Positions 21,470-43,119 of a DNA stretch of 64,000 nt are shown in pieces; position 1 is the stretch's first letter; every line of letters begins with the position of its first letter. A program made the translations under genes and the position numbers. Origin of the DNA: Prevotella sp. UBA2711 (GTDB lineage Bacteria > Bacteroidota > Bacteroidia > Bacteroidales > Bacteroidaceae); NCBI GenBank assembly GCA_002354095.1, contig DEKX01000037.1:66525-130524 (forward strand). Reading direction: 5' to 3'. The notes beneath the pieces were generated by a model. It saw only the letters and a list, made by a program, of their open reading frames with translations. It did no database searches and was not told where the DNA came from.

Positions 21470-22408
21470 ATGAAAAGAATATTAGTAACTGGAGGAGCCG
21501 GATTCATTGGTTCCCATCTCTGCGAAAGGTTAGTCAACGAAGGCCACGATGTTATCTGCATCGACAATTTCTACAGTGGTTCTAAAGAAAATGTATGGCA
21601 CCTCATCGGAAAGCCCAACTTCGAACTCGTTCGTCACGATGTCATCAATCCCTATTGGGCTGAAGTTGACGAAATCTATAATCTGGCATGCCCTGCTTCA
21701 CCTATATATTATCAGAACGACCCTATCCAAACTACTAAGACCAGTTTCTTTGGTGCTTATCACATGCTGGGACTGGCTCGCCGTACCAAGGCTAAGATTC
21801 TACAGTCATCAACCAGTGAAGTGTATGGCGATCCCAATGTACATCCACAGCCTGAATCGTATTGGGGAAATGTGAATCCCATTGGACTACGCTCATGCTA
21901 TGATGAAGGTAAGCGCGTAGCTGAGACGCTTTTCTTTGATTATCACCGTTTGCACAAGGTTCGTTCGAAGGTGATTCGTATTTTCAACACCTATGGTCCA
22001 CGCATGGCAGTGAGCGACGGTCGTGTAGTTTCTAATTTTGTTGTGCAGGCGCTTAAAGGCGAAGATCTCACCATCTATGGTGACGGTCAGCAGACACGTT
22101 CGTTCCAGTATGTCAGCGACTTGATAGAGGGTATGATTCGGATGATGGACACACCCGACGATTTCACAGGTCCCGTCAATCTGGGTAATCCTGGCGAATT
22201 TACCATGTTGGAACTGGCAGAGAAGGTCATCAAGAAGATTGGTGGAAAGAGTAAGATCGTGTTCCGCCCACTGCCCAGCGACGACCCCAAGATGCGCCGT
22301 CCTGACATCACTATTGCTAAGCGTGAATTAGGATGGGAACCTAAGGTGCCGCTGGACGAGGGACTTGACCACATCATCGCCTACTTCCGCGAGTACCTGA
22401 AGCGTTGA
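21470..22408 (+). CDS. UDP-glucuronic acid decarboxylase (SDR)
   Basis: [51 protein letters not shown]. Confidence 0.92.
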
Positions 22409-24464
22409 ACTTCACTTTCAGTCCTACGACAAGCATACGCCCTGGTGTGTAAAGGGCATACTTACGATTAGCAGAATCTATCCTACAGTCAACTCGGTCG
22501 AAGATATTATCAACACCGATGCTGGGCTGTAGGATAATTCGTTTCAGACCATCAAAGGTATGAACGGTGTGGAGGTTCCACACGCCAAACCCTGGAGCAT
22601 CTTCGTAAGTAGTATAGTAGGTTTTCGACTGCAACTTACCATTCAGATTGACATGCAGCGAATAGTGGCCCCAACGGTGGTGATAGTTGGCTGCAATAGT
22701 GGCTGCATGGCGGATGCTGCGCTCCATCATGGTCCATTCTTCATCCGACTTCGTTCGAGCATAGGTATAGACATAATTAGCCGACAGGTTGAAACCCTGG
22801 AACAGATTGGCGGAAACATTCATCTGCAATCCCTTGACATCTCCCAAATCACTGTTCTGATAGCGTGAGTAACGTTCCAGTTTTCCTGCTTGATCATCTG
22901 TCATCTCAGGAAACTCCTGACGGAGCATTTCCAGCGATGTACCATCAACAGGAATATCCTGACGCACCACCATATCGTTGATGCGATTGAGGAACCCCGT
23001 CACACTGACAGCCAACAAATCACTACGGTATTCGGCATTCAGCGACACATAATGACTACGCTCAGCCTTCAAATCAGGATTTCCGAAAATAATCTGTGCC
23101 TTACCACGGTTGACGGAAAAATAGCGATAATAGATTTCGTCAAGTCCTGGCGCACGGAATCCTTGCGAATAGGTTGCACGGAAACGGAAATTGCCTGGTG
23201 CATACATCAGAACTGCCTTGGGCGAAAACTGATTGCCAAAAGTCTCGTGATGCGTATAGCGCAATCCTACCGTTACCGTCAGGTCGCGAAGGAGCCGATG
23301 CTCATGCTGGGCGTATGCCGCCAATGTATAGGCATGCTGATGGATATCGCCTGAGGTAGCTGTCAAATAGTCTTTTCTGTAATTGGCGCCCAGAATGGTC
23401 GTGCTACCTTCCACCAGTCCAAGAATGGCTTTCATTTCGCCCTCCATTGTGCGTTGTTTCTTCGACTGCACATAATCTCCCACAGCATACTTTTTGGTAG
23501 CTACGTCATACTCTTTACCATAACGGAAACGATCGACGGTGAAATTGGCCTGCAAGGAATTCTTGGCAGTAAACTTATAGATTCCACCAATATTCCAGCG
23601 AAGTCCTTTGTACCGCATTTCGTAGTCTGTACCGCCAGTAATATCCTCACGTGTCTCTGGACGATTGGTTATCTTATAGTAATAATCCATACCCGCATTC
23701 AAGGCTAAATGCCGATTGGGGGCATAGGTAAACTTCTGACCGACGATGTTGGAGCGATAGCCAGTAAAGAAAGGAGCTATCGTCTGCTGCGTTTCCGTGT
23801 CTGAACCTTTCACAAATTCCAGGTTATTATTCTGATAACTGTCCGCACGGTCGTGAGCAAACGAAGTGTAAGAACCGAAACCATTCTTATAGATATCGAG
23901 ATTGATGCTTTCTGTCAGAATACCGTGCCCGCTGACCTTTGTCGTGTTGGTAACACTACATACGGAATTGGTGGGCTGATCGGTAATGATGTTGATAACA
24001 CCTCCTATGGCATCGGAACCATAAAGAGAAGAGGCTGCTCCGTCGAGAATCTCGATGCGCTTGACCCGCGCCATATTGATGCGGTTCAAATCTACATTAT
24101 TAGAGATATCGCCTGAGAGCTTCTGTCCATTCATCAGAATCAGAATATATTTATTACCCAGTCCGTTCAGGCGCAGGAAAGTACCCATCGAGTTAGGAGC
24201 CATAGATGCCTGAGGCATCATGCGTGTCAATGCCTCATCAAAGGTCGTAATGCCTTGCTCACTGATTTCCTGAGCCGACAACACATGCACGGGGGTAGCC
24301 GTTGACTTCAGACGCTGATGGTGACCAGAGCCTGTCACGACGATAGGGTTCAGATTGTACGTGCGCTTCACTTGGGCGGAATCGCTGTTATCTGTCTGAT
24401 GAATTTGAGCCTGTCCTGACAGACAGAATGTCAAAAGACTGGCTACGAATATCTGTTTCTTCAT
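22374..24464 (-). CDS. TonB-dependent receptor (BtuB-like), second copy
   Basis: [32 protein letters not shown], barrel strands, GVDNIFD..PGR C-terminus. Confidence 0.9.
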
Positions 24465-24485
24465 GAAAAAGAGTTTAATGGAAAG

Positions 24486-24513
24486 GGAGATGCAGTCTCA
24501 CGACTACACCTCC
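24486..24513 (-). terminator. Intra-operon hairpin/terminator between the CbiK-like gene and the second receptor
   Basis: 12-bp stem that closes on the minus strand with two G-U pairs (GGAGGUGUAGUC/GACUGCAUCUCC) and a short U run. Confidence 0.55.
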
Positions 24514-24549
24514 TTTGTACAACTTATATAATAATACATCTACAATTGA

Positions 24550-25713
24550 TTATTCGGATGCCGTTGTAGGAGTTGACATAGCAGCGTCAGTTCCCAACTT
24601 CTTGATAGCATCACTTGTGTGCTTCTTCCAAAGGGCACGAACAGCACTGCGCTCTGCAAGACCTGGGATATAACCATTAGCCTTAATCTCAGCGGTGTTC
24701 TTCCAGCAAGCCTCGGTGAAGTTGGTTTCGTAGGCGGCTGTCTCTATATCAGCCTTATTGAACAGTGAGACCCAGCTCTCGGGGTCTTCCTCGTCAGCCA
24801 TATCGTTGTGAGCATGGTCACCGGCAATTGACATCAGCACAAAGAGCTGAGCCTTCTTGGCATTGTTCTTTTCATAGTTAGCGGTGTAGCCCATCGCACC
24901 CACCTGATAATCAAACTTGCCACCGCCAATGTGAGCCAACACATCCTCGGCATAGGTTTCAGCCATATCCACCGTACCTACATAATAGTTCTTGTTGATG
25001 GCACGCAGGGCGTCTTCCAACTGCAAGTAGCGAATGTTACCGCCATAGTAGTCGTAACCCTCAGGATTACCGTGTCCCATAAAGGCAACGATACCCTCTC
25101 CAACAGCAGCCTTCACGTCGGCTTCATCGTTCAGAACCTTAGCGAGGTTTTCTGCGTCGCTCTCCTCAGCCATCAGCGGTGTACCTACTACCACCTGACG
25201 GTCGATGCTCTTCATGTAGTCATCAGTGAAGTCGCCGTTACGGTTGTTCATGAAGTCCTTCACATAGCTGTCACGAACACGACGGTACTCCTCACCAGGA
25301 ATCACCTGCAACGACTGGACTACTATCTGCTTGTAGCCAGCCAGTCCGATAGCTGTCAGGAAGTGCTCTGGGTCGTAGAAGTCGCGAGGTTCCACATTCT
25401 CACCGGCACGTGCCTGATTGATGCAGATAGCACTTGAGAAAGAGAGGAATACATCCCAACCGGAGAAACTGGCTTTGTAGTCTTCCACCACCTTTTCGAA
25501 GGTGTCGTAGGCCTGCTCCCAAGTTGAACCGAAGGCTACTACCAGAATAACCTTGTCGTTCTTCTTCTGAGCATTGACAATTGCATTGACGGCCTGCTGA
25601 TATTGGTCGTACTTAGAAGGGGCCGTCTTGTTGTCATCATCACCACAAGCAGTAAATGTGGTACACACTGTGATTGCCATCAGGGCAATCAGCAAAAACT
25701 TAATTTTCTTCAT
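24550..25713 (-). CDS. CbiK-like cobaltochelatase lipoprotein (IhtB-like)
   Basis: Lipobox TAC-GDDD; ILVVAFGS, FMGHG and LMSIAGDHAHNDM retain both chelatase histidines. Confidence 0.85.
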   Translation of the reverse strand: MKKIKFLLIALMAITVCTTFTACGDDDNKTAPSKYDQYQQAVNAIVNAQKKNDKVILVVAFGSTWEQAYDTFEKVVEDYKASFSGWDVFLSFSSAICINQARAGENVEPRDFYDPEHFLTAIGLAGYKQIVVQSLQVIPGEEYRRVRDSYVKDFMNNRNGDFTDDYMKSIDRQVVVGTPLMAEESDAENLAKVLNDEADVKAAVGEGIVAFMGHGNPEGYDYYGGNIRYLQLEDALRAINKNYYVGTVDMAETYAEDVLAHIGGGKFDYQVGAMGYTANYEKNNAKKAQLFVLMSIAGDHAHNDMADEEDPESWVSLFNKADIETAAYETNFTEACWKNTAEIKANGYIPGLAERSAVRALWKKHTSDAIKKLGTDAAMSTPTTASE

Positions 25714-27826
25714 TGTTTCTTTGATTTAAGTTACGTTTATATTTGTTAGTCAATTTCTTACCTTTATTGAATCGTAGGGTCAGCGAGGCATAGACGGTAG
25801 TGCCTGGCGTGGTGGTGCCGAGATGGAGCCCGTGAGGGGTCTTATCAATATAGTTGAAGATGTTGTCGATACCCGCCTCCAGTCGCAGATTCTTACCAAA
25901 CTGGTGGGTGGTGGACAGTCGCCAAATCTGATAGCCCTTGCCATCTCCGTCTATCTGGTAATAGCGCTTGGTGGACATGCGTCCATAAATGCCAAGTCCC
26001 AATTGGTAGTGTTTCGAGAAATCGCGGTTCCATGTGGCATACCAGTTGGCTTTGTGGTGAGCCATACCGTCTATCGTCACTTCACGCATCACCTCTTTAT
26101 CCGTATCATACTGGTGGGCTTTGGTGTCCAGATAGCTATACGAGCCTCCAAAAGTAAAGTGCTTGGTCTGGTAGCGCGCCGTGAAGTCGATGCCATAGGT
26201 CTTGGCATCCTCCATGTTCTGATATTGGCGCACGCGCTTGGGGTCATACTGCACGATGAGGTCGCCCGGTGCCTCACTCGTAGGAATCGTCACCAGTGCT
26301 ATCATATTGTCCACCTTATTATAATAACCAGAGAGCGTCAGCGTCAGGTTCCCTATGGTATATTCAGCACTCAGTCCGAAATAATTGGAGGTTTGTGCCT
26401 TCAGGTCGGTATTGCCTAAATAGAGATACACCCCACTCATATTACGGATATACTGATAATGCAGTTCCTTGGGCGTGGGTGTCTTATAGCCCTGGCTCCA
26501 GGTGGCACGCAGTCGCCAGTCGTGCAGTTTCAGCATGGCTGAGAGTTTAGGCGTCAGACGGGTGCCGAAGCCCTCATTGCGTGTTAATCGCAGACCGCCA
26601 GTAATGTGTGCAGCGATTCTGTCGCTGCACAGCCAACGCCACTCGTCCTGCACATAGAGAGCCTGCGTATTATCCGTTGCCTTGCCGCCCTTCACGCGCA
26701 TAGGAGCTTCAAGCCAGTCGTAACGATAGTCGAAGCCTGCCGACAGGGTCTGCTCGTAGGGCAGCGCAAAGACGCCCTTCAGCGAGATGTGCGTCAATTG
26801 CTGATCGCTCTGCAACTCCTTATCACCAGGGAAATAAGGATAATAGTTCGTAAAGTGCCCGTTGACATAACCATCGGTCAGTGTCGTATCCGTATAAACG
26901 TATTTATAGGCATGTCTCTTCCAATCGGCATCCAGCGTAATGACATCCGTTGCATTGAGTTTCCACTTACCCCCAACAGAGGCAGAGGCATTATTGTATT
27001 GCAGGTCGTAGGTCCTGACATCCACCCCGGGGTGATGTCCGCAAGGGCGATAGATGCGCTTCCAGTAGATACTGCCGTCGGCATAGAGTTCTATCTTCGG
27101 TGTAAGCTGATAGGTCAGATGCTCCGCCACCTGCCAGTTCGTATGCCGGTTGGTCGTTTTATTACGTGAATCAGTGATGTGGTATTCCGTCTGCGAAATA
27201 GCCTCTTCGCTGGTGTTCTGCCAACCGTCAGAATGCTGCAGTTGAAAGTTTGTATATGACGACCACTTGCCATAGTTCAAGGCAATACCGTTATGCTGAC
27301 GAATGTCACCATACGAACCGAATCGCGAAGTATTCTCCAGCATCACGCCCTGTTCGCGGTGCTTCTTGGTGATGATGTTAATCACACCTGCAATAGCATC
27401 CGAGCCATAGAGCGCCGACGAAGCACCCTTCACGATTTCTATCTTCTCAATGTTGTGAGGGTCGATGAGCGAGAGGTCGTTTTCGCCACCATTGTCACCA
27501 TGCAGTCTTCTGCCGTCTATCAGGATGAGCACATACGAGTTGCCCAGACCGTTCATCTGCAAATGCGAACCCATATCGTTCTCGTTGAAGGCAAACGAAG
27601 CCGTCAGACCTCCGAGAATATCCTCGATACTCTTGCCTGCATACTGTCGTAACTGCCTGCCGCTAATGACCTCCGTCTGCACGGGGGCATCCTTCAGCAG
27701 GTGCTGGGTGCCTGTACCTGTCACCACCACCTCCTGCAAACTGTCAGCACGCAACACATCTTTCTGTGCAGATACGCCAATAGCCAACAGCCAACAGCCA
27801 ATAGCTAACACTATTTTCTTCATCAT
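25700..27826 (-). CDS. TonB-dependent receptor (BtuB-like), first copy
   Basis: EVVVTGTGT, IEIVKGASSALYGSDAIAGVINIIT, GIDNIFN; directly below the cobalamin riboswitch. Confidence 0.92.
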   Translation of the reverse strand: MMKKIVLAIGCWLLAIGVSAQKDVLRADSLQEVVVTGTGTQHLLKDAPVQTEVISGRQLRQYAGKSIEDILGGLTASFAFNENDMGSHLQMNGLGNSYVLILIDGRRLHGDNGGENDLSLIDPHNIEKIEIVKGASSALYGSDAIAGVINIITKKHREQGVMLENTSRFGSYGDIRQHNGIALNYGKWSSYTNFQLQHSDGWQNTSEEAISQTEYHITDSRNKTTNRHTNWQVAEHLTYQLTPKIELYADGSIYWKRIYRPCGHHPGVDVRTYDLQYNNASASVGGKWKLNATDVITLDADWKRHAYKYVYTDTTLTDGYVNGHFTNYYPYFPGDKELQSDQQLTHISLKGVFALPYEQTLSAGFDYRYDWLEAPMRVKGGKATDNTQALYVQDEWRWLCSDRIAAHITGGLRLTRNEGFGTRLTPKLSAMLKLHDWRLRATWSQGYKTPTPKELHYQYIRNMSGVYLYLGNTDLKAQTSNYFGLSAEYTIGNLTLTLSGYYNKVDNMIALVTIPTSEAPGDLIVQYDPKRVRQYQNMEDAKTYGIDFTARYQTKHFTFGGSYSYLDTKAHQYDTDKEVMREVTIDGMAHHKANWYATWNRDFSKHYQLGLGIYGRMSTKRYYQIDGDGKGYQIWRLSTTHQFGKNLRLEAGIDNIFNYIDKTPHGLHLGTTTPGTTVYASLTLRFNKGKKLTNKYKRNLNQRNNEEN

Positions 27827-27877
27827 TCCTAATTTTCCGCAACGCATATCCCTGTACGCGCGTACCTATAATATTAT

Positions 27878-28071
27878 ATTGGCAGGTCTTCTGACTTTCC
27901 TCAGCCTGTTCTACCTTCCCGACTATACCGTCAGTGGCGTTATACGAACAAGCCTCTTAAACGAGGATTACAGCAGCAGGTACTGTTCAGGACTTTCACC
28001 TGATTCCCTTACATCAGGCACCATTCGAGTGCCAGATTGCCTAACAGCGAACATCGTCACGACTCAGCCAA
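27878..28071 (-). ncRNA. Cobalamin riboswitch
   Basis: Minus strand AAGGGAATCAGGTGAAAGTCCTGAACAGTACCTGCTGCTGTAA...GCCACTG...GGGAAGG...AGTCAGAAGACCTGCCAA; a TTGGC/GCCAA closing stem; promoter TAACTTTG at 28123-28130. Confidence 0.93.
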
Positions 28072-28204
28072 ACGTGCCAGCACGATGGCATTCGCAGCTC
28101 CGATATTTGCCATTTTCGAGTGCAAAGTTACGAAAATATGAGCGAAAAGCCAAAGGAAAGCAAACTTTTCTTTGGCTTTATTGAGAAAAAAGTATAAGTC
28201 ACAT

Positions 28205-32669: not shown

Positions 32670-32736
32670 ATTGGGAATTCAGAATAATTGATTATCTTTG
32701 CAAACGAAACAAATATGGGCAAACGAAATAAGGAGG

Positions 32737-33996
32737 ATGAATAATGGTTTCCTGATAGCAGCACCTATGAGCGGCTCTGGCAAAACAACTGTTGCCAGAG
32801 GGCTGATGGCATTGCTGACGGAACAGGGACATACGGTGCAACCCTTTAAGTGCGGACCCGACTATATCGACACAAAATTCCATGAAGCGGTTTGTGGGCG
32901 CCCCTCGGTGAATCTTGATACGTTTATGGCTACGCCTAAGCATGTGAGGGCGCTCTTCGAGCACTACAGCGAGGGGGCAGACGTGAGTATCGTGGAAGGT
33001 ATGATGGGGCTCTTCGACGGCTACGACCGCGACAGAGGCTCTTCGGCAGAGGTAGCGCGCGTATTGGATATCCCCATCGTGCTGGTAGTCGATGCCAAGT
33101 CGGCAGCTTATTCAATGGCAGCACTGTTGACGGGTTTCCTCCATTTCCGTGACGATATTCGTTTTGCGGGCGTGATATTTAATAAGGTGGGGTCGGAGCG
33201 TCATCTCCAGATGCTTCAGGATGTATGCGACGACCTGCATATTTCGTGTCTGGGCTATGTGAAGAAGAACGCTCAACTGGAACAAGGCTCCCGTTACTTA
33301 GGGCTCGACTTCTCCCAACAGACAGGGCGGCAGGAGCTGTTGGATTGTTTCCATAGTTCCCTGCATTTATTCCCAAGGTGGGAATGTTTTATTCCCAAGG
33401 TGGGAACATTTCATTCCCAAGGTGGGAATATTTTGTCCGCAACAAGGGGACTACGCGTGGCTATGGCTCGAAACAGCGAAAGCTTCAGTTTCGTCTATCA
33501 AGAGACGCTTGATTCTTTGGGCGAAATTACCTACTTCGACCCAGAGAAGGACGTTCCCCAACTCACCGACATTGACTTACTCTACCTGCCCGGTGGGTAT
33601 CCTGAGAAGCATGCCGAGGCACTTACCAAGAACGAAGCCTGTCGCCAAGCCATTCGCGATTATGCCGAACGGGGCGGTCGCATCGTGGCTGAGTGTGGGG
33701 GCATGATGTATCTCTGTCAGAGCATCATGACCGACGAGGGGGAATATCCGATGTGTGGCGTTCTGCCCTACAAGATTTCGGCACGCAAGGCTGACCGCAA
33801 GCTATCGCTGGGCTATCGCCGCTTTGAACTGGGCGGCAAGGAGTATCGTGGACATGAGTTCCACTACAGTCAGTTTGTGGGCGAAACGCCCCCTTCCGTC
33901 ACCCAGGTCTATGACGCCAAGGGACGCCCCGTTGCCACCCCTGTGTTCAAATATAAGAATGTATTAGCCAGTTATACTCACCTCTATCCGCTATGA
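32737..33996 (+). CDS. cbiA: Cobyrinate a,c-diamide synthase
   Basis: SGSGKTT, FKCGPDYID, EGMMGLFDG, AECGGMMYL, HEFHYS; -7 box at 32693-32700. Confidence 0.95.
   Translation: MNNGFLIAAPMSGSGKTTVARGLMALLTEQGHTVQPFKCGPDYIDTKFHEAVCGRPSVNLDTFMATPKHVRALFEHYSEGADVSIVEGMMGLFDGYDRDRGSSAEVARVLDIPIVLVVDAKSAAYSMAALLTGFLHFRDDIRFAGVIFNKVGSERHLQMLQDVCDDLHISCLGYVKKNAQLEQGSRYLGLDFSQQTGRQELLDCFHSSLHLFPRWECFIPKVGTFHSQGGNILSATRGLRVAMARNSESFSFVYQETLDSLGEITYFDPEKDVPQLTDIDLLYLPGGYPEKHAEALTKNEACRQAIRDYAERGGRIVAECGGMMYLCQSIMTDEGEYPMCGVLPYKISARKADRKLSLGYRRFELGGKEYRGHEFHYSQFVGETPPSVTQVYDAKGRPVATPVFKYKNVLASYTHLYPL
33369..33434. repeat. Three tandem 22-bp palindromic units inside cbiA
   Basis: ATTCCCAAGGTGGGAA at 33369, 33391 and 33413. 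Confidence 0.9.
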
Positions 33997-35444
33997 AACA
34001 ATTACACCCCTTGATGCTGGCAGGAACAGGCAGCGATGTCGGTAAGAGCATCGTTGCGGCGGCTTTCTGTCGCATCTTCCTGCAAGACGGCTATCAGCCT
34101 GCCCCTTTCAAAGCCCAGAACATGGCGCTCAACAGCTATGCCACCCCAGAGGGTTTGGAGATAGGGCGCGCTCAGGCAGTACAGGCAGAGGCAGCCGGTA
34201 TTCCCTGTCATACGGATATGAACCCGCTGCTCTTGAAACCTCAGAGTGACCATACGTCGCAAGTGGTACTGCATGGCAGACCGATTGGCAATAAGAATGC
34301 GTATGAATATTGGAGGAAGCACACTGGTGAGATTGACTTCCGTCAGGAGGTGTGCGATGCTTTCGACCGACTGGCAGCACGTTACAACCCTATAGTGATG
34401 GAGGGGGCTGGCAGTATTTCGGAAATCAATCTGCGCGATACCGATTTGGTGAATCTGCCGATGGCACGTCATGCCAAGGCTGATGTCATCCTTGTGGGCG
34501 ATATTGACAGGGGTGGCGTTTTTGCTTCCGTCTATGGCAGCATTGCCTTGCAGACGCCTGAGGACCGCCAACTCATTAAAGGCATCATTATCAACAAGTT
34601 CCGTGGCGATTTGCGCCTTTTCGAAGAGGGACGGCACATGCTGGAACAGATTTGCGGTATTCCCGTATTGGGGGTTATCCCCTACTTGAAGGATATCCAT
34701 ATCGAAGAGGAAGACAGTGTGGCATTGGCTATGAAAAGTTCAAAGTTCATAGTTCATAGTTCAAAGGTGAACGTGGCAGTCATCATGTTGCGCCACATCA
34801 GCAACTACACCGACTTCAATGTCCTGGAACAGGACCCACGCGTACACCTGTTCTATACCAATAATGTGGATGACATCCGCCAGTCGGACATCATCATCCT
34901 GCCAGGCACGAAATCGACCCTCAACGACCTCTACGAACTGCGCCGCAACGGGTGTGCACAGGCTATTATACAGGCTCACCGTGAGGGGGCTGTGGTACTG
35001 GGCATCTGTGGCGGTTACCAGATGCTGGGACAGGAGGTGAGCGACCCGCAGCATGTGGAGGGCGACATCGAGCGACTGCCTGGTCTGGGGCTTCTGCCTA
35101 TCACTACGACAATGGAGGGTGAGAAAGTGACGCGACAGACGGAATTCCTGTATCATGGACAACTGCTGAAGGGTTACGAGATTCACATGGGACAGACGAC
35201 TGCCCCACCCGATGGCGGATATGTCTGGGAGGGTCATCACTGTCTGGGAACGTATATTCACGGCATCCTCGACAATGCTGCCTTCATCAACCGACTATTG
35301 GAGCCCTTTAAGGAAAAGATACAGGAACGCACCAGCCATTTCGACTACCAGACCTACAAGGAAGAGCAATACAATCGCTTGGCTGAGCATGTGCGCCGAC
35401 ATGTAGATATGGACAAAATCTATGAAATACTGACCCATGACTAA
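33993..35444 (+). CDS. cobQ: Cobyric acid synthase
   Basis: GTGSDVGKS, PFKAQNMALNS, VMEGAGS, GICGGYQMLG, GYEIHMG. Confidence 0.96.
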   Translation: MKQLHPLMLAGTGSDVGKSIVAAAFCRIFLQDGYQPAPFKAQNMALNSYATPEGLEIGRAQAVQAEAAGIPCHTDMNPLLLKPQSDHTSQVVLHGRPIGNKNAYEYWRKHTGEIDFRQEVCDAFDRLAARYNPIVMEGAGSISEINLRDTDLVNLPMARHAKADVILVGDIDRGGVFASVYGSIALQTPEDRQLIKGIIINKFRGDLRLFEEGRHMLEQICGIPVLGVIPYLKDIHIEEEDSVALAMKSSKFIVHSSKVNVAVIMLRHISNYTDFNVLEQDPRVHLFYTNNVDDIRQSDIIILPGTKSTLNDLYELRRNGCAQAIIQAHREGAVVLGICGGYQMLGQEVSDPQHVEGDIERLPGLGLLPITTTMEGEKVTRQTEFLYHGQLLKGYEIHMGQTTAPPDGGYVWEGHHCLGTYIHGILDNAAFINRLLEPFKEKIQERTSHFDYQTYKEEQYNRLAEHVRRHVDMDKIYEILTHD

Positions 35445-36366
35445 ACTGCTGGCTCTACTTTTCGGATGGATTCTCGACCTCCTGCTGGGCGACCCCGCAT
35501 GGCTGCCCCACCCCGTTGTAGGGTTCGGCAAAATGATAGCCTTTGGAGAACATCGGCAGAACAAGGGAACACACAGAAAACTGAAAGGAGCCGTCTTAGC
35601 CATCGGACTGATTCTGGCAACTTTTGCAGCCACATGGCTCTTATTATATGCTATTTCAAAACTCCCCTCGCCTTTAGGAGAGGGGTTGGGGGTGAGGCTT
35701 CTCCTCATCTTCTTCTGTTTAGCAGGCACCACCCTCATACGCGAAGTCCGTGAGGTATTCCTTGCCCTTGACCGTTCACTGGAAGAAGGGCGCAGACAGG
35801 TGGCACGCATCGTGGGGCGCGACACCTCCGAACTCTCTGCACAGGAAGTGCGTACGGCTGCCCTGGAGACGTTAGCCGAGAATTTGAGCGATGGCGTTAT
35901 CGCTCCCCTCTTCTGGCTGGCATTATTGGGCGTGCCCGGTATGGTGGCTTATAAGATGGTGAATACGCTTGACTCCATGATAGGCTATCGCACGGAGCGC
36001 TATCGGGAGTTCGGATGTTGGGCGGCTCATATCGATGATATTGCCAACTACATCCCTGCCCGTCTGACGGCTTTGCTGATGATTATCGTTGCAGGCAGAC
36101 CATGCCTTGCCGGTTTCGTATGGAGGAACGGATGCCGACATGCTTCACCCAACAGTGGCTATCCTGAAGCAGCCTTAGCAGGCATCCTCAACTGTCGCTT
36201 TGGAGGTCCGCATTACTACTTCGGTGAACTTTTCGACAAACCGTTTATCGGCGAGAACGACAGAGCACTCACCACCGAGGACATGAAAAAAGCCATCCGT
36301 GTGAATCGAATGGCTGAGGTCTTGATGGTCGTATTGGTAGGGCTATGCGCCTGGTTGGGCTACTAA
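35437..36366 (+). CDS. cbiB: Adenosylcobinamide-phosphate synthase
   Basis: GDP..PHPVV, IVGRDT, AENLSDG, NTLDSMIGY, SPNSGYPEAA. Confidence 0.96.
   Translation: MTKLLALLFGWILDLLLGDPAWLPHPVVGFGKMIAFGEHRQNKGTHRKLKGAVLAIGLILATFAATWLLLYAISKLPSPLGEGLGVRLLLIFFCLAGTTLIREVREVFLALDRSLEEGRRQVARIVGRDTSELSAQEVRTAALETLAENLSDGVIAPLFWLALLGVPGMVAYKMVNTLDSMIGYRTERYREFGCWAAHIDDIANYIPARLTALLMIIVAGRPCLAGFVWRNGCRHASPNSGYPEAALAGILNCRFGGPHYYFGELFDKPFIGENDRALTTEDMKKAIRVNRMAEVLMVVLVGLCAWLGY
35662..35697. repeat. REP-like hairpin element in frame in cbiB (PSPLGEGLGVR)
   Basis: CCCCTC-GCCTTTAGGA-GAGGGG then TTGGGGGTGAGG. Confidence 0.7.
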
Positions 36367-37140
36367 GCATACCACCACGAGATAGACGGTCAATTCCACC
36401 AACAGGCAGACGGCTCCACAACAGTCGCCTGTATATCCGCGAAGCCTATTCCATATCAGCAGGTAGAGGAAATACATCACCAATCCCGGGAGGAAAATAA
36501 TATACTCCCACGAGAGGCCCGTCAGATATAGAAAACCCACCATCGGAAGCAAACCCTGAATGGCCAGACTGACACCTGCCAAGGGCTGAATCTTGCGATA
36601 GACGGTTTTCGACTTGGCCTCTTCTTCCCTGCGGGCATAAGGCATCATGATAATCAGTTGACTCGTCACCATCTTGCTATAAGGGTCGGCAGCCAGTATA
36701 GCCAAAGCCGCTATCTCTGTGGGCATGGAATAGAGGGTTGCCACCAACAGCAACTCATAGAGTATCAGTCCTAACACGCCATAGGTACCGATATGCGAAT
36801 CCTTCATGATGTCAAGAATACGCTGGCGGTCTCTGCCTCCTCCACCGAAGCCGTCCAGAAAATCAGCCAACCCATCCTCATGCAAGGCTCCCATCAGCAA
36901 CAGACGCACCACCACGGCTGCAATGACAGCCAGCAGATGGGGCAGCAACATACTGCCGAACCATAGTGTGGCAGCCATCGCTCCACCTGTGAGCCAACCA
37001 GTCAGGGGCCAATGTTCCACAGCTGCCTGATAACACTCCTTAGGCGGCTGATGCAGTCGCCAGAAAGGCAGTCGGGTAAAGAAGATAAAGGATGCCCAAA
37101 TGCGGTCGTACCATTTCGTCTGATCAATACTTACTTCCAT
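36343..37140 (-). CDS. cobS: Adenosylcobinamide-GDP ribazoletransferase
   Basis: FFTRLP, GALHEDGLADFLDG, MKDSHIGTYG, GYTGDCCGA. Confidence 0.96.
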   Translation of the reverse strand: MEVSIDQTKWYDRIWASFIFFTRLPFWRLHQPPKECYQAAVEHWPLTGWLTGGAMAATLWFGSMLLPHLLAVIAAVVVRLLLMGALHEDGLADFLDGFGGGGRDRQRILDIMKDSHIGTYGVLGLILYELLLVATLYSMPTEIAALAILAADPYSKMVTSQLIIMMPYARREEEAKSKTVYRKIQPLAGVSLAIQGLLPMVGFLYLTGLSWEYIIFLPGLVMYFLYLLIWNRLRGYTGDCCGAVCLLVELTVYLVVVCLVAQPGA

Positions 37141-37145
37141 CTCGT

Positions 37146-38171
37146 TCAGAAATATTTTGTGATTGCTGCATTTTGAAAGTTATTCATCTCGTTCATCATG
37201 CGCACCGCACTGTCCACGATAGGGAAAGCACAAAGTGCACCAGTGCCCTCGCCCAAACGCAGGCCCAGCTTCAGAAGGGGTTTCACTTGCATGGCCTCCA
37301 ACATCAGTTGATGGCCTGACTCATCGCCACAATGGGTAAATATCATGTAGTCCTTGCTTTTAGGCTCCAAGTGTATAGCAGCCAGTGCACAGGCTGTCAT
37401 GATGAATCCATCTACCAATATCACGAGGTGTTGCTCTGCCGCACGAAGCATCGCGCCTACGGCTGCTATCATCTCAAAGCCTCCGAAATAGGCTAAAGGA
37501 TTGTCATGCTGATAGTTGGCAAGAGCCTGCGAGAGTACTTCGTACTTATGACGAATGCCTTCGGAATTAAGTCCTGCACCTGCACCGATACAGTCTTTAA
37601 GGGGTATATGACAGAAGAGGTGCATCCAGATGCTGGAGGGCGATGTATTGGCAATACCCATCTCACCAATACATAGCACGCGACAACCTTCCTTCACGCA
37701 CTCGTCCACCAAGTCGGCACCAATGGCGACGGCTTCATCGAACTGTTCTTCTGTCATGGCTGGTTCATGCAGGAAATTGCCTGTGCCACGCGCTATCTTT
37801 CTGTCGATGATACCGTCTATATGACTGAGGTCGTAGTCAACACCCACATCCACAATGCGCAAATGGAAACCATGCTGTCGGCAGAACATATTGACGCCTC
37901 CTCCACCTCGTGTGAAGTTAATCATTTGTTGCCAGGTGACTTCCCGTGGTGACACACTGACACCCTCACGCTCTATCCCATGGTCGCCTCCCAATAACAA
38001 GTGACAGGGATGAGCCAACGAAGGCGATAGCGTCTGCTGTATCAGGCACACCTGCATGGCCAACTCTTCCAAGCGTCCCAACGAACCCTTAGGTTTGTTC
38101 AGATTGTCTATCTTTTCTTGTATCTGAGGGCGCATGGCCTCGTCAGGTGATGTTATCTTAAACTGTTTCAT
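37146..38171 (-). CDS. cobT: Nicotinate-nucleotide:DMB phosphoribosyltransferase
   Basis: KPKGSLGRLE, GEMGIANTS, DGFI, LRLGEGTGA. Confidence 0.96.
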   Translation of the reverse strand: MKQFKITSPDEAMRPQIQEKIDNLNKPKGSLGRLEELAMQVCLIQQTLSPSLAHPCHLLLGGDHGIEREGVSVSPREVTWQQMINFTRGGGGVNMFCRQHGFHLRIVDVGVDYDLSHIDGIIDRKIARGTGNFLHEPAMTEEQFDEAVAIGADLVDECVKEGCRVLCIGEMGIANTSPSSIWMHLFCHIPLKDCIGAGAGLNSEGIRHKYEVLSQALANYQHDNPLAYFGGFEMIAAVGAMLRAAEQHLVILVDGFIMTACALAAIHLEPKSKDYMIFTHCGDESGHQLMLEAMQVKPLLKLGLRLGEGTGALCAFPIVDSAVRMMNEMNNFQNAAITKYF

Positions 38172-38674
38172 TTGATCTTTACTGGTATGCCACTGACCAT
38201 CAGCACGACCTCATCGGCTTGCTGGGCAATGTATTGGTTCATCCATCCTTCCAAATCGGTAAACTTCCGTTGGATGGCATTCTCACTGACACCACCACTG
38301 CCTATCTCGTTGGTAACAAAGATATAGGTGGCATCAGGAGCCGTGAAACGATTGAACTCCTCCTTGGCGGCTTCGAGGGTTTGGGCTACATCCGACGTCT
38401 CGAAAAAGAAATTGGTAAGCCAAAGGGTTACACAGTCTATCACCACCACTCTACCCGTCAGGTCATGACGACTCAGAAACTTTTCTTCTTCGATATTCGT
38501 CCATTGGGGACCTCGTCGCTCTTGGTGCTTCTTCACGCGCTCACGAAATTCGTCATCCCAGATATGGGCAGTAGCCAAATAGACGGGATGGTCCGACAGA
38601 CTCAAAGCCAACTGCTCTGCCTGTTGACTCTTCCCTGAGCGTTGTCCTCCTGTTATCAGAATAATTCGTTTCAT
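38168..38674 (-). CDS. cobU: Adenosylcobinamide kinase / guanylyltransferase
   Basis: ITGGQRSGKS, YLATA, HQERRG, DCVTLWLTN, VTNEIGSG. Confidence 0.95.
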   Translation of the reverse strand: MKRIILITGGQRSGKSQQAEQLALSLSDHPVYLATAHIWDDEFRERVKKHQERRGPQWTNIEEEKFLSRHDLTGRVVVIDCVTLWLTNFFFETSDVAQTLEAAKEEFNRFTAPDATYIFVTNEIGSGGVSENAIQRKFTDLEGWMNQYIAQQADEVVLMVSGIPVKIK

Positions 38675-38694
38675 CTTTTTGTAGTATTTTGCTG

Positions 38695-38721
38695 CAAAAT
38701 TAATCATTTTTTGTAACTTTG
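38695..38721. promoter_or_regulatory. Back-to-back -7 boxes of the divergent cobU and cbiH operons
   Basis: TAATTTTG (minus, 38695-38702) and TAACTTTG (plus, 38714-38721) in a 55-bp gap. Confidence 0.6.
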
Positions 38722-38729
38722 CACACAAT

Positions 38730-40133
38730 ATGAAGAAAATAATCGTTGCAGGAATCGGTCCAGGTAGTCCGCAGGATATTACACCTGCTGTGATGGAGGC
38801 CGTCAGAGAAGCTGATGCCGTTGTAGGCTATAAGTATTACTTCCAGTTTGTTGAATCCTATCTGAAACCTGGGTGTGAATGTATTGACACAGGTATGAAA
38901 CGGGAAAGCGAACGGGCAGAGCAGGCTTTTGCGCTGGCTGAAGAAAACAAAACGGTGGTGGTCATTTCCAGTGGTGATGCCGGCATCTACGGCATGGCTC
39001 CCCTCATCTACGAGATGAAACTGCAACGAGATTCGGATGTAGAGATTACAACCCTGCCGGGTATTTCTGCTTTTCAGAAAGCAGCATCCCTTCTCGGGGC
39101 TCCTATCGGTCACGACACCTGCATTATCTCACTCTCCGACTTGATGACACCCTGGGAGGTGATAGAACGGAGAATCGAGGCTGCTGCCATGGGCGATTTC
39201 GTCACTGCTATCTATAATCCCAAGTCGCACGGTCGCTATTGGCAGCTGTATCGCCTACAGGAAATATTCCTGCAGCACCGTGCTACTGGCACACCCGTCG
39301 GCTATGTCCACCAGGCTGGTCGCGAAGAGGAAATTGTGAAAGTCACCACCCTGAAGGATTTCAATCCTGAGGATGTGGATATGTTTACCGTCATCATCAT
39401 CGGTAACTCGCAATCGTATATAGCCGATAGCAAGATGATTACTCCCCGTGGGTATTATAGGAATCAGTCTGAACCGACAGGCAATAAGATTGGACAAAAT
39501 ATCATGATGGAGTCTTTCCGCACCATCAAGAATGAACTGAGCCGACAGGACTATCCGTTAGACCATCTGTGGGCGCTGCTGCATGCCATCCATACCACAG
39601 CCGACTTTGATATGGAGCGCATTCTCCATACTGACGAGCATGCCGTGGCATCATTATTTAATAAGGTGAAGGACGGAACGCTGAAAACTATTGTGACGGA
39701 TGTGACGATGGTGACCAGTGGTATCCGCAAGGGAGCCTTAGAACGGTTGGGTATTACGGCTAAGTGTTATCTGAGTGATGCCCGGGTGGCTGAGATGGCT
39801 GCCCAAGAGGGTTGTACAAGAACACAAGCGGGTATCCGACTGGCTGTAGAGGAGCATCCCGATGCGCTCTATGCCTTTGGCAATGCCCCAACAGCGCTCA
39901 TGGAACTCTGTGAACTGATTCGCAAGGGTAAGGCTCACCCTGCCGGCATCATTGCTGCCCCTGTGGGCTTTGTGCATGTCAGGGAATCCAAACACATGGT
40001 AAAGCCGTTCCACGATATCCCAAAGATTATTGTTGAGGGCAGAAAGGGAGGCAGTAATCTGGCTGCAACACTATGCAATGCCATTCTGACTTTCGACGAT
40101 GCCGAACAACTAAAACCTGGACGCGATTTATGA
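38730..40133 (+). CDS. CbiH(CobJ)-CbiC(CobH) fusion: C17-methyltransferase / precorrin-8X methylmutase
   Basis: GIGPG, ISSGDAGIYGM, ISLSDLMTPW, TPRGY; then HTTADF, GNAPTAL, GRKGGSNLAA. Confidence 0.93.
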   Translation: MKKIIVAGIGPGSPQDITPAVMEAVREADAVVGYKYYFQFVESYLKPGCECIDTGMKRESERAEQAFALAEENKTVVVISSGDAGIYGMAPLIYEMKLQRDSDVEITTLPGISAFQKAASLLGAPIGHDTCIISLSDLMTPWEVIERRIEAAAMGDFVTAIYNPKSHGRYWQLYRLQEIFLQHRATGTPVGYVHQAGREEEIVKVTTLKDFNPEDVDMFTVIIIGNSQSYIADSKMITPRGYYRNQSEPTGNKIGQNIMMESFRTIKNELSRQDYPLDHLWALLHAIHTTADFDMERILHTDEHAVASLFNKVKDGTLKTIVTDVTMVTSGIRKGALERLGITAKCYLSDARVAEMAAQEGCTRTQAGIRLAVEEHPDALYAFGNAPTALMELCELIRKGKAHPAGIIAAPVGFVHVRESKHMVKPFHDIPKIIVEGRKGGSNLAATLCNAILTFDDAEQLKPGRDL

Positions 40134-41353
40134 AGTTTATCATCATAGGCATAACAGACCATCCTCACCCATACTTTCCACCGGAAGTAATGGAAATCAT
40201 CCAGCATGGCAGGGTCTTCTCTGGTGGTAAGCGCCACCACGAGATTGTAGCCCCCTTGCTCCCCACTGGCGCTGAATGGATAGACATCACCGTACCCCTC
40301 GATAGCGTCTTCAACCAATACCTCAGTGTCCCTCTCTTTCGGAGAGGGGGCAGAAGAGAAGTCATCATCTTTGCCAGTGGTGATCCGCTGTTTTTCGGTT
40401 TTGCCAATACCATCCGTCGGAAAATGCCTGATGCTGAATTGGTGGTCTTCCCTACTTTCAACTCGTTGCAACTGTTAGCCCACCGCTTGCTGATACCATA
40501 TCATGACATGCGAATCGTCTCCCTGACGGGACGCCCTTGGCATGAGTTCGACAAAGCGCTGATTCAAAGGACCGGGAAGATAGGCGTTCTGACAGACCGC
40601 GAACACGCCCCTGCTACCATTGCCCAACGCATGTTGGACTATGGATATACCGATTACCAGATGCATGTCGGTGAACATTTGGGGAATCCTGACGAGGAAC
40701 GTGTTACCACCATGAGTTTACAGGAAGCAGCCAAACAACAGTTTCAGCATCCTAACTGTCTGATTCTTACTTCCGACATCAGCCTTCAGACATCCCCCTT
40801 CGGCATTCCCGACCATGAGTTTGCACTCCTTGACGGTAGGGAGAAGATGATTACGAAGATGCCTATCCGTCTGTTGACACTCCAAACCTTGGACCTGCCA
40901 CGGAAACGGGTACTATGGGATATCGGTTTCTGTACGGGCAGTGTCAGTATCGAGGCAAAACTGCAATTCCCCCACTTACAGGTGGAGGCCTTTGAGATTC
41001 GTCCTGAGTGCGAAGCCATCATCCAGGAGAATGCCCACCGTCATGGCACCCCAGGCATCGGCATCCACATCGGCGATTTCCGCACGGTGTGTTGCGATTC
41101 CGTCGCAACACCCGATGCCGTCTTCATCGGAGGCCACGGAGGCCACCTCCAAGAAATCATGGAAAAAGCATTGCACTATATGGCTCCTGGCGGTTGTATC
41201 GTCATGAACAGTGTCAAAGCGCCTCGTGTAACCACCGATAGCGAGCAGCTATGGAATGAGGCTTGCCAAGCATTAGGCCTGCATCAAGAACCTCCCTTGC
41301 ATATACAATTAAATGATCATCATCCTATTACTATACTAAAATGCAGAAGATAG
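40130..41353 (+). CDS. CbiE-CbiT fusion (C5,15-methyltransferase/decarboxylase)
   Basis: FASGDPLFFG, SLTGRPW, MITKMPIR, WDIGFCTGSVSIE. Confidence 0.92.
   Translation: MKFIIIGITDHPHPYFPPEVMEIIQHGRVFSGGKRHHEIVAPLLPTGAEWIDITVPLDSVFNQYLSVPLFRRGGRREVIIFASGDPLFFGFANTIRRKMPDAELVVFPTFNSLQLLAHRLLIPYHDMRIVSLTGRPWHEFDKALIQRTGKIGVLTDREHAPATIAQRMLDYGYTDYQMHVGEHLGNPDEERVTTMSLQEAAKQQFQHPNCLILTSDISLQTSPFGIPDHEFALLDGREKMITKMPIRLLTLQTLDLPRKRVLWDIGFCTGSVSIEAKLQFPHLQVEAFEIRPECEAIIQENAHRHGTPGIGIHIGDFRTVCCDSVATPDAVFIGGHGGHLQEIMEKALHYMAPGGCIVMNSVKAPRVTTDSEQLWNEACQALGLHQEPPLHIQLNDHHPITILKCRR
40330..40358. repeat. Second REP-like hairpin element, in frame in cbiET
   Basis: CCCTCTC-tttcg-GAGAGGG-ggcagaagag; related to 35662-35697. 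Confidence 0.55.
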
Positions 41354-43119
41354 CCATTATCCAAATTAGTGAAGCAGGGGCTGAAGTAGCCAACAGTCTG
41401 CGCAGAGAACTACAAGCAGAAATCATTGAACGTTCCGCTGTCGGCAAACAATGGAAGAAGTTCGATGCCTTTGTGTTCATCGGTGCGATGGGCATTTGTG
41501 TTCGCACCATTGCTCCTTACATCGAAGACAAGCATACCGACCCTGCCGTGGTATGTGTGGACACCTTCGGCAACAATGCCATATCGGTTCTTTCAGGACA
41601 CATCGGAGGAGCTAATAACCTCGCTACTGAGGTGGCTGCCATTCTGGGGGCTCGCCCTGTCATCACCACTCAGAGCGACAATGCAGGACTATGGGCACTC
41701 GATACCTTTGCCGAGCGTTTCCATTGGGCGATTGCCAGTGAGGATGATATGAACGAATGTATTTTTGCTTTCGTGAATCGCCAACCCACTGCCCTGCTGA
41801 TGGAAATATGCGACGAAGGCACTGACTATCTCGAAAAGACACTCCCTGACCATGTCACCGTTGTCAAGAGTCTGGCTGAGGTCGATCCTCAAAAATATAG
41901 TCTGCTCATCATGGTAACGCCCTACAATCTCTGTCCACCTGCTGGTATGTTAGAGTTGCATTTCGTTCCTATGATAGCCTCTCTCGGATTTGGATTGGCT
42001 AACCATCCTGCCGACTATGAGTGCATCTATGATGAGATAGACGAGACATTGAGCAGTATCGGCATTCTGCCCTGCTACAAGCGCTACTGCACCATCGATG
42101 TGAAGGAGGACGAAGAATTCTGTGCCATGCTGGTTGACGAATATGATGAGGAATTGGTGTTCTATACGGCAGAACAACTGGCAAAGGTGCAGGTTCCTAA
42201 TCCCAGCGAGACCGTTCGCAAGCACGTGGGTACTCCCAGTGTCTGTGAGGCAGCTGCTATTCTGGGGGCTAACAACGGAAAACTAATTGTTCCTAAGGTG
42301 AAGGGCAGAAACTGGACTGCTGCACTGGCTATTGATTATAAATATCTCCGTGAACAGAAAGGACATATCGAGATTGTGGGAGCCGGTCCTGGCGACCCCG
42401 ATTTGATATCCGTACGGGGGCGCAAGATGTTGGAACGTGCCGATTTGATTCTGTATGCCGGCAGTCTTGTTCCCAAAGAACTCACTGATTGTCATAAGCC
42501 AGGTGCTATGGTTCGCTCTTCTGCGGATATGACACTCGAGGAACAGTGCTCATTGATGAAACAATATTACGACCAGGGGAAATACATTGTACGCCTACAT
42601 ACTGGCGACCCCTGCATCTTTGGAGCCATTCAGGAACAGATGGCTTTCTTCGACCAGAACAGCATGGAGTATCACATCACCCCTGGCATCTCGTCGTTCC
42701 TCGCTGCCGCTGCAGAATTGCAGAGTCAGTTTACGATTCCAGAGCGTTGTCAGACCATCATCCTGACTCGTGGTGAAGGGCGTACGCCCATGCCTGAAAA
42801 GGAACAGCTCCATCTGTTGGCTAAGAGTCAAAGTACCATGTGTATCTTCCTCAGTGCTGCCATCGTGGATGATGTGCAGAAAGAGCTCTTAATGGAATAT
42901 CCCGAAGACACTCCCGTTGCAGCCTGCTATCATCTGACATGGCCCGACCAGCAGATTTTTCGTGGAAAGCTGAAAGACTTAGCCAAGATTGTTCATGACA
43001 ACCACCTCACCCTCACCACCATGCTGGTGGTTGGTGATGCCATTGACAACCGCCAAGGGCTCTCCGAACTTTATTCCAGTCATTTCTCCCACCTGTTCAG
43101 AAAAGGCAATCCATCATGA
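41341..43119 (+). CDS. CbiG-CbiF(CobM) fusion
   Basis: AMGICVR, SGHIGGAN, TPSVCEAAA; then VGAGPGDPDLI, YAGSLV, RLHTGDP. Confidence 0.94.
   Translation: MQKIAIIQISEAGAEVANSLRRELQAEIIERSAVGKQWKKFDAFVFIGAMGICVRTIAPYIEDKHTDPAVVCVDTFGNNAISVLSGHIGGANNLATEVAAILGARPVITTQSDNAGLWALDTFAERFHWAIASEDDMNECIFAFVNRQPTALLMEICDEGTDYLEKTLPDHVTVVKSLAEVDPQKYSLLIMVTPYNLCPPAGMLELHFVPMIASLGFGLANHPADYECIYDEIDETLSSIGILPCYKRYCTIDVKEDEEFCAMLVDEYDEELVFYTAEQLAKVQVPNPSETVRKHVGTPSVCEAAAILGANNGKLIVPKVKGRNWTAALAIDYKYLREQKGHIEIVGAGPGDPDLISVRGRKMLERADLILYAGSLVPKELTDCHKPGAMVRSSADMTLEEQCSLMKQYYDQGKYIVRLHTGDPCIFGAIQEQMAFFDQNSMEYHITPGISSFLAAAAELQSQFTIPERCQTIILTRGEGRTPMPEKEQLHLLAKSQSTMCIFLSAAIVDDVQKELLMEYPEDTPVAACYHLTWPDQQIFRGKLKDLAKIVHDNHLTLTTMLVVGDAIDNRQGLSELYSSHFSHLFRKGNPS

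Follow-up and report, generated by a model that had tools for sequence, protein, structure and literature searches.

A cobalamin-riboswitch-controlled operon of two TonB-dependent receptors and a CbiK-fold lipoprotein in Prevotella sp. UBA2711 as a candidate entry point for corrin-ring precursors

Analysis of a 64,000-nucleotide stretch of DNA from Prevotella sp. UBA2711 (assembly GCA_002354095.1, contig DEKX01000037.1, positions 66,525 to 130,524; the whole of this stretch is the window, to which all coordinates refer) reveals a minus-strand operon (22374-28130) in which a cobalamin riboswitch heads the genes for two TonB-dependent receptors, A and B, and for a lipoprotein with the fold of the class II chelatase CbiK. 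We propose that this operon could provide an outer-membrane entry point for the salvage of corrin-ring precursors, with cobalt handled outside the cytoplasm, a proposal for which we judge the case to be evenly balanced. Besides the lipoprotein, no chelatase homologue was found in the genome, which holds the second half of the ring pathway only, and this makes the operon the best candidate for the import of a ring precursor. Across relatives, the lipoprotein is tied to the corrin-ring genes, as would be expected of a protein that captures such a precursor.

The anatomy of the operon was defined by Pfam and NCBIfam profile searches for the proteins of the window and by an Rfam scan for RNA elements. 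In the order of the minus strand, the operon comprises the riboswitch, receptor A, the 387-residue CbiK-fold lipoprotein and receptor B. The cobalamin riboswitch aptamer (RF00174; 27864-28059, minus strand) matches the full length of the model (positions 1-189) with 73.5 bits against a gathering score of 31.5 (E 3.2e-16), in agreement with the sequence-only reading of this DNA, which had placed a full riboswitch at the head of the operon. It was re-detected by nhmmer with a profile made from 46 relatives, and it is the sole Rfam match in the 20-52 kb portion of the window, permissive threshold included. On its 5' side, the sequence TAACTTTG (28123-28130, minus strand) reads as a putative Bacteroides-type -7 promoter box; the consensus of this box is TAnnTTTG, which TAACTTTG fits. 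The 3' end of the aptamer lies 38 nucleotides before the likely start codon of receptor A. A terminator scan from the aptamer to this start codon found none, and the 106 nucleotides that surround this codon, when folded, showed no significant structure of the expression-platform type (z -0.39). Since there is no terminator between aptamer and start codon, we infer that the riboswitch acts at translation initiation.

Receptor A (25700-27826, minus strand) is of the IhtA type and has a Plug domain and a TonB_dep_Rec barrel. Its likely start is the ATGATG at 27826, which gives 708 residues; an alternative ATG is present at 27847. The 3' end of its gene overlaps by 14 nucleotides the start of the lipoprotein gene (24550-25713, minus strand), a homologue of IhtB/FetB that matches PF06180 at 121 bits against a cut-off of 26.2. 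The last gene of the operon encodes receptor B (22374-24464, minus strand), a 696-residue protein with plug and barrel. The spacer between the lipoprotein gene and receptor B is 85 nucleotides long, and a terminator-like scan marks within it a hairpin with a 12-bp stem and a weak T-run (24486-24513, minus strand). In relatives this spacer measures 4-100 nucleotides (4-40 in several close relatives); such short spacers make it likely that the lipoprotein gene and receptor B are co-transcribed.

The lipoprotein carries signals for export. Its N-terminus consists of MKKIKFLLIALMAITVCTTFTAC followed by GDDDN, an acidic run placed directly after the lipobox cysteine (Cys23); the acidic lipoprotein signal that the earlier reading had noted is thus present. 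In Bacteroidota, acidic residues at about +2 to +5 after the lipobox cysteine route lipoproteins to the cell surface, and by this signal the protein is predicted to be surface-exposed. Of the solved structures, FetB is closest to it in sequence (9b86, E 3.9e-21), followed by 2xvx and 1qgo. An AlphaFold2 model, built on a 26-row alignment, has a predicted local distance difference test (pLDDT) score of 81 and a predicted template-modelling (pTM) score of 0.83. Foldseek comparison of this model with FetB (9b86), the CbiK(P) of Desulfovibrio vulgaris (2xvx) and Salmonella CbiK (1qgo) returns template-modelling (TM) scores of 0.82-0.85, normalised to the target. The protein is about 94-95 residues longer than FetB, and alignment and model place the additional residues in an N-terminal linker helix, in a beta-hairpin at about 262-285 and in further inserts past residue 320.

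The predicted active site of the lipoprotein retains both of the catalytic histidines, as the sequence-only reading held: these are H214 and H300, which correspond in the alignment to His145 and His207 of Salmonella CbiK. The equivalents of both are invariant in all 43 homologues of the active-site alignment, which spans surface, periplasmic and cytoplasmic forms. The third active-site residue is Asp or Glu in 43/43, with Asp here in the place of Salmonella Glu175. This conservation of chelatase residues points to an active site under selection. The protein scores 95.1 bits with the NCBIfam equivalog for CbiK (NF047852), for which the cut-off is 400. A score so far under the cut-off argues, at the level of profiles, that the lipoprotein is a diverged member of the CbiK family and not a housekeeping cobaltochelatase.

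The host genome places this protein in the context of a corrin pathway that lacks its beginning. The cob cluster (32698-44837) stands about 4.5 kb from the operon. It comprises cbiA, cbiP and cbiB for the amidation and cobinamide steps (32698-36366, plus strand; NCBIfam equivalogs above their cut-offs), cobS, cobT and cobU for nucleotide loop assembly (36343-38728, minus strand; NCBIfam), and the fusions cbiHC, cbiET, cbiGF and cbiJD for the late corrin-ring pathway from cobalt-factor III (38730-44837, plus strand; NCBIfam domains). Past it are genes for a BtuC-like permease and a BtuF-like periplasmic binding protein (45526-47666, minus strand; NCBIfam BtuC and Pfam Peripla_BP_2), a candidate inner-membrane leg. 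NCBIfam annotation agrees with the earlier observation that neither cbiK nor cbiL is present in the nearby cob cluster, and a search of the whole assembly (3.12 Mb, 97.7% complete) extends this result: a cytoplasmic CbiK, a CbiX and a CbiL were all looked for and none was found, nor was any second CbiK. The same whole-genome search found no CobA/CysG, HemB, HemC, CobN/HmuS (PF02514), ferrochelatase HemH or CbiM. Weak CobA/CbiL-like matches in the genome belong to two RsmI rRNA methyltransferases and were set aside. A HemD-like gene is present. With HemB, HemC, CobA and CbiL not found, the substrate of the pathway from CbiH onward cannot be made, and the predicted exported lipoprotein is the only recognisable tetrapyrrole chelatase of the genome. 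The genome also encodes two proteins with B12-binding domains, of 919 residues (the size of MetH) and 725 residues (the size of a methylmalonyl-CoA mutase), from which it follows that the organism needs B12.

Two cobalamin riboswitches were found in the host genome, and the operon described here is the only transporter under the control of one. The other riboswitch (83 bits; contig C5:15846-16030 of the host genome, G000, minus strand) precedes an open reading frame of 133 residues with a weak flavodoxin match (L011:11248-12031). The latter adjoins a gene for a TraG/VirD4-like type IV secretion coupling protein and may sit on a conjugative element.

Comparison with relatives shows how closely the operon type is associated with B12. 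We inspected 38 Bacteroidales loci that hold a CbiK homologue, taken from genomes of the host's family and order, and in 37 of them the gene for this homologue has at least one cobalamin riboswitch beside it. The remaining one, L085, was considered as an iht operon like that of Porphyromonas gingivalis and rejected as such, as it has the canonical cytoplasmic layout: a cbiK without signal peptide, followed by cbiM, cbiQO/sirC, hemA, hemC and cobA/hemD. Outside L085, the conserved core consists of riboswitch, receptor A and lipoprotein, in this order, and nearly all receptor-linked copies of the lipoprotein begin with a lipobox and acidic run of the CSDDDD type. What lies 3' of the core varies among receptor B, BtuF-BtuC or both. 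In many relatives the same strand runs on from the receptor and lipoprotein genes into cbiHC-cbiET-cbiGF(-cbiJD), with cbiA-cbiP-cbiB running in the opposite direction from the far side of the riboswitch. In the window, by comparison, the receptor/lipoprotein block and the cbi block are parted by about 4.5 kb.

Two further features of L085 may be recorded here. Just 5' of its cytoplasmic cbiK operon lies a Bacteroidetes small RNA of the FopS family (RF04319; L085:7925-7999, genome G227, 66.9 bits). In the CbiK tree, the cytoplasmic CbiK of L085 sits on a long branch within the clade that the exported lipoproteins of the long form make up (95/89 support), which hints either that the location of CbiK switched more than once or at a long-branch artefact. 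The automatic class labels on this tree were noisy, and its main split was used in place of label statistics.

The link with the corrin genes can be counted. Among 301 evenly sampled genomes of the family, for which presence of the lipoprotein was taken as a strong homologue, the lipoprotein occurs in 81 and CbiH in 98. Both are found in 80 genomes, CbiH only in 18, and neither in 202; the lipoprotein thus occurs in one of the 203 cbiH-negative genomes. Five of the 18 genomes with CbiH only were inspected. Four of them have, by cbiHC, a riboswitch, a receptor-B-like gene and a divergent signal-peptide CbiK of 304-306 residues, and the stretch fetched for the fifth showed cbi genes only. All CbiK homologues seen in the family are exported and stand beside a gene for a TonB-dependent receptor. 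HemC was not found in 67 of the 70 CbiH-positive family genomes tested. Of the 81 genomes with the lipoprotein, 59 gave no match for CbiL; CbiL is present in 16 of the 18 genomes with CbiH and without the lipoprotein. In an order-wide sample, CbiH accompanies the CbiK homologue in 14 of 14 genomes. Within the host's own genus, lipoprotein and cbiH occur in 2 of 17 sampled genomes, and the closest homologues of the lipoprotein (79% and 74% identity) belong to other genera. This patchy presence, with the nearest homologues elsewhere, suggests that the whole B12 cluster was acquired horizontally.

The receptors differ in their company. A full-length comparison of receptors A and B gives 28% identity (E 4e-80), which makes them distant paralogues and bears out the description of two paralogous receptors of about 700 residues flanking the lipoprotein. 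In most of the 38 loci the CbiK-like gene has a receptor-A-like gene directly 5' of it, and in the relatives examined receptor A is always paired with the surface lipoprotein. Receptor A is 38% identical to the Porphyromonas gulae receptor that precedes a FetB homologue. In related genomes of the Prevotella type, orthologues of receptor B (64-75% identity) stand 3' of the lipoprotein gene; more distant ones stand directly 5' of cbiHC. Elsewhere, receptor-B-like genes pair with a signal-peptide CbiK directly 5' of cbiHC and have, in some genomes, a riboswitch of their own. At E 1e-80 or better, a receptor-B-like gene is present in 85 of the 98 genomes with CbiH and in three of the other 203, with some of the weakest matches being receptor-A-type genes. 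Judged by these arrangements, the operon of the window looks like the union of two modules that are found apart elsewhere, one of receptor A and surface lipoprotein and the other of a receptor-B-like protein and periplasmic CbiK. Each module has a separate riboswitch in some Bacteroides-type genomes (L075 and L077). These two loci (G589:C1:2706000-2725500 and G314:C1:114500-131000, respectively) each hold four cobalamin riboswitches in less than 20 kb, some as divergent pairs, and the riboswitches control separate receptor and exported-CbiK modules.

Family profiles assign neither receptor to a known importer. With the BtuB models, receptor A scores 123 bits (TIGR01779, cut-off 599.7) and 91 bits (NF007926, cut-off 836), and receptor B 140 and 85 bits, respectively. 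Among solved structures both receptors have generic matches alone (Cir, and E. coli BtuB mainly over the plug domain with E about 1e-14), which carry no information on specificity, and the Bacteroides BtuB structures are absent from the PDB matches of both at E 1e-10. The assignment of receptor B as a generic BtuB was rejected, as its homologues also co-occur with cbiH and adjoin cbiHC on the 5' side. That receptors A and B take different substrates, as the earlier reading of this DNA supposed, is a guess on which their sequences do not decide.

The proposed mechanism would run as follows, with surface exposure, substrate, catalysis and the order of the steps all being predictions. At low adenosylcobalamin, the riboswitch would permit expression of receptor A, the chelatase lipoprotein and receptor B. 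The lipoprotein would capture an exogenous isobacteriochlorin, or an early cobalt-tetrapyrrole, shed by other microbes. In a host without CbiL, such as this one, it would capture a compound at the stage of factor III or cobalt-factor III; in those relatives that have kept CbiL, the compound would be sirohydrochlorin or cobalt-sirohydrochlorin. The lipoprotein would probably insert or hold cobalt outside the cytoplasm through its conserved His-His-Asp site and then hand the compound over, for receptor A, perhaps together with receptor B, to carry it across the outer membrane. The BtuF/BtuC-like ATP-binding cassette (ABC) system would carry it across the inner membrane, and CbiH and the later enzymes would complete the cobamide. 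In a wider form, which we put forward tentatively and hold to be less probable than the proposal for this operon itself, Bacteroidales at large may have moved the cobalt chelation of anaerobic B12 synthesis outside the cytoplasm, so that surface or periplasmic CbiK and dedicated receptors would metalate and import scavenged isobacteriochlorin.

Several considerations weigh against precursor salvage. We know of no bacterium that takes up compounds at the level of sirohydrochlorin or factor III, and of no documentation that such compounds are available in gut or rumen. The input required where CbiL is missing, at the level of cobalt-factor III, is an unusual metabolite, and an unrecognised C20 methyltransferase could stand in for CbiL. 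FetB is a haem-binding protein, and the compound used to measure its chelatase activity was a porphyrin analogue and not an isobacteriochlorin (PMC13065792, PMC12094164). By NCBIfam and PDB searches, neither receptor fits a characterised specificity class. As the genome's only riboswitch-controlled transporter, the operon may also, or only, take up finished corrinoids. The genomes counted are kin, so that the counts describe a pattern and not independent events, and the Fisher p-values overstate it; the link between lipoprotein and cbiH is due in part to physical linkage and shared descent.

The most direct competitor is plain corrinoid uptake, in which receptors A and B would be BtuB-type importers of finished cobamides or cobinamide, the lipoprotein a non-catalytic binder of corrinoids at the surface, analogous to BtuG or BtuH, and the link to cbiH that of one inherited cluster. 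Riboswitch control is typical of btuB, and the P. gingivalis receptor has been named btuB (PMC3422912); the position of this operon as sole riboswitch-controlled transporter in a genome that needs B12, and the BtuF/BtuC-like genes that stand alongside in relatives, would fit as well. The Bacteroidota surface, moreover, bears several unrelated B12-binding lipoproteins (PMC6143338, PMC8941943). We nevertheless consider this account rather unlikely. Genomes of the family without cbiH generally depend on imported B12 (PMC6461909), and they are the ones from which the module is missing, with the single exception counted above. A mere binder has no need of a His-His-acid site that is invariant in 43 of 43 homologues. 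Both receptors, at 123 and 140 bits, fall far from the BtuB cut-off of 599.7, and their PDB matches leave out the Bacteroides BtuB structures.

Acquisition of metal gives two further accounts, one of which takes up the sequence-only reading that cobalt or cobalt-tetrapyrrole precursors are captured at the surface. If the chelatase site of the lipoprotein bound Co(II) at the surface and a receptor imported the metal, the operon would, under the control of B12, replace a missing transporter of the CbiMNQO type. CbiM was indeed not found in the genome, control by riboswitch is common for the cobalt importers of B12 producers (PMC7689651), and D. vulgaris CbiK(P) was crystallised with cobalt (2xvz). 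Imported cobalt would, though, be of no use to a genome in which neither a cytoplasmic chelatase, of whatever class, nor a route to a ring substrate was found. ABC importers of the BtuF/BtuC type (type II) move large chelates and not free ions, which also speaks against this account. Free cobalt by itself is therefore insufficient, and we regard its acquisition as improbable; the other half of the earlier idea, the capture of precursors, is strengthened by the link to the corrin genes.

The second of these accounts is the one proposed for Iht, by which the lipoprotein would strip iron from haem at the surface and the receptor would import the iron. It has in its favour the homology to IhtB/FetB, which binds haem (PMC12094164), and the binding of haem by D. 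vulgaris CbiK(P) too, as mentioned by citation in PMC13065792. Both the window and the P. gulae locus, however, have control by B12, through their riboswitches, and not by iron or haem. The iht transcripts are flat under starvation for iron or haem (PMC12094164). In vitro, FetB loaded a porphyrin analogue with Co(II) and Mn(II) and did not insert Fe(II) or Ni(II), and it did not dechelate haemin (PMC13065792). Disruption of the cbiK homologue of Bacteroides fragilis left the use of haem iron unaffected (PMC6460266, unpublished data there). These published results sit better with B12 than with iron. HmuS/CobN and HemH were not found in the host genome. We hold a role in haem or iron acquisition to be very improbable.

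Setting the operon beside known systems indicates that it is of a kind already known, that of the IhtA-IhtB (btuB-fetB) operon of P. gingivalis. The latter encodes the IhtA receptor, the IhtB/FetB lipoprotein and the IhtCDE ABC transporter, and published work treats it as an iron/haem system in which IhtB is a 'reverse ferrochelatase' (PMC12094164). The sequence-only reading had taken B12 control as a contrast to this system. That contrast does not hold, as Iht itself is under a cobalamin riboswitch: Hirano 2012 mapped one 5' of PGN_0704 (IhtA), found the genes to be co-transcribed and repressed by coenzyme B12, and gave PGN_0704 the new name btuB (PMC3422912), an account that Scott 2013 repeats (PMC3764172). 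Our scan of the P. gulae locus likewise finds an RF00174 match of 75.1 bits, followed by a receptor, a FetB homologue that is 94% identical, and BtuF-like and BtuC-like genes. The two systems share the cobalamin riboswitch, the TonB-dependent receptor and then the CbiK-fold outer-membrane lipoprotein, and the window lipoprotein compares with FetB (9b86) at a TM score of 0.84. According to the account of Roper 2000 given in PMC6461909, P. gingivalis is without early tetrapyrrole steps and keeps corrin genes; our searches find the same in the window host. The differences are that the second receptor 3' of the lipoprotein gene exists in the window only, that the BtuFCD-like genes of the window lie 18 kb off and not in the operon, whereas they are adjacent in P. 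gulae and many relatives, that the lipoprotein signal is strongly acidic here (CGDDDN) compared with CSSNNKD in FetB, and that CbiL is absent from the window genome. The literature, moreover, treats Iht as a system for iron and haem.

Other systems share parts of this design. D. vulgaris CbiK(P) (2XVX/2XVY/2XVZ) is an exported class II cobaltochelatase with its catalytic residues kept, and the TM scores between its fold and the model of the window lipoprotein are 0.84-0.85. In Desulfovibrio, a B12 element governs cbiK-cbiL together with btuCDF (PMC545781), so that the gene stands behind such an element there too. CbiK(P), however, is soluble and periplasmic, with a type I signal, and has no TonB-dependent receptor as partner; its host, as PMC13065792 relates from Lobo 2008, also has a cytoplasmic CbiK and the full pathway. 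Salmonella CbiK (1QGO) shares PF06180, the two-domain alpha/beta fold and the equivalents of His145 and His207, but it is cytoplasmic and has 264 residues, where the window protein is exported and has Asp for Glu175. The cytoplasmic layout of CbiK, beside cbiL and cobalt transport genes, does not occur in the window, which has instead a lipoprotein signal and receptor neighbours. The Bacteroides BtuB-BtuG/BtuH systems likewise pair a riboswitch-controlled TonB-dependent receptor with an adjacent gene for a surface lipoprotein (PMC6143338, PMC10404256), with the common logic of a surface binder that feeds a barrel. BtuG is a beta-propeller and BtuH a DUF4465 domain, however, both unrelated to the chelatase fold, and these systems occur in B12 auxotrophs without ring genes, whereas the module of the window co-occurs with cbiH. 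Of the Hmu haem uptake system (HmuY/R/S), the CobN-like dechelatase HmuS (PF02514) was not found in the host genome. Shelton et al. defined the class of 'tetrapyrrole precursor salvagers', noted that P. gingivalis is without precorrin-2 synthesis, and named no uptake route (PMC6461909). In the library searched, we found no paper that ties an exported chelatase and receptors to precursor salvage or that reports the co-occurrence or synteny with cbiH.

The surroundings of the operon complete the description. The 3' end of receptor B overlaps a convergent epimerase gene (21470-22408), where the operon ends. An open reading frame of 96 residues (22087-22377), antisense inside the epimerase gene and with no family match, was treated as spurious. 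The gene 5' of the operon encodes an unrelated SpoIIE/TPR protein. In the cob cluster, cbiA is one open reading frame of 432 residues (32698-33996), and in many relatives (L060, L062-L065, L067, L069, L073) it is represented by two adjacent frames of about 180-260 residues, which in L063 overlap by 4 nucleotides. The point of the split is near an in-frame palindromic insert of 66 bp (33369-33434), which may join both halves here.

What this analysis adds is the presence of the riboswitch at 37 of 38 CbiK-homologue loci, the co-occurrence of lipoprotein and cbiH, the synteny with the corrin genes, the invariance of both catalytic histidines, and the set of early-pathway and chelatase proteins not found in the host genome. 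The type of operon is known; the literature treats it as serving iron/haem, and it may instead serve B12 metabolism. Prevotella and Bacteroides are among the most abundant bacteria of gut and rumen. Genome surveys class them as producers, salvagers or consumers of B12 partly by counting 'cbiK', a gene that encodes an exported protein in every cbiH-bearing genome of the family that was examined. According to the appendix of PMC8123684, after Rodionov et al. 2019, B. fragilis, Parabacteroides and P. gingivalis count as B12 prototrophs in genome-based schemes, by a signature set of which CbiK/CbiX is part. With the CbiK homologue exported and HemC missing in the family genomes examined, such calls of prototrophy may be wrong, and if the module imports a ring precursor, the classification into producers, salvagers and consumers would need revision. 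Early cobalt-tetrapyrroles would then form a new class of shared metabolites in models of cross-feeding. The Iht/FetB system of P. gingivalis, for 25 years an iron/haem factor, would be reinterpreted as part of B12 metabolism. If the wider form of the proposal holds, the equally old (25-year) puzzle of the headless corrin pathway in P. gingivalis and its relatives would be resolved, lineages without CbiL, such as the window host, would take in a compound at the level of factor III, and these abundant bacteria of gut and rumen would be 'finishers', which turn a ring precursor supplied by the community into cobamides.

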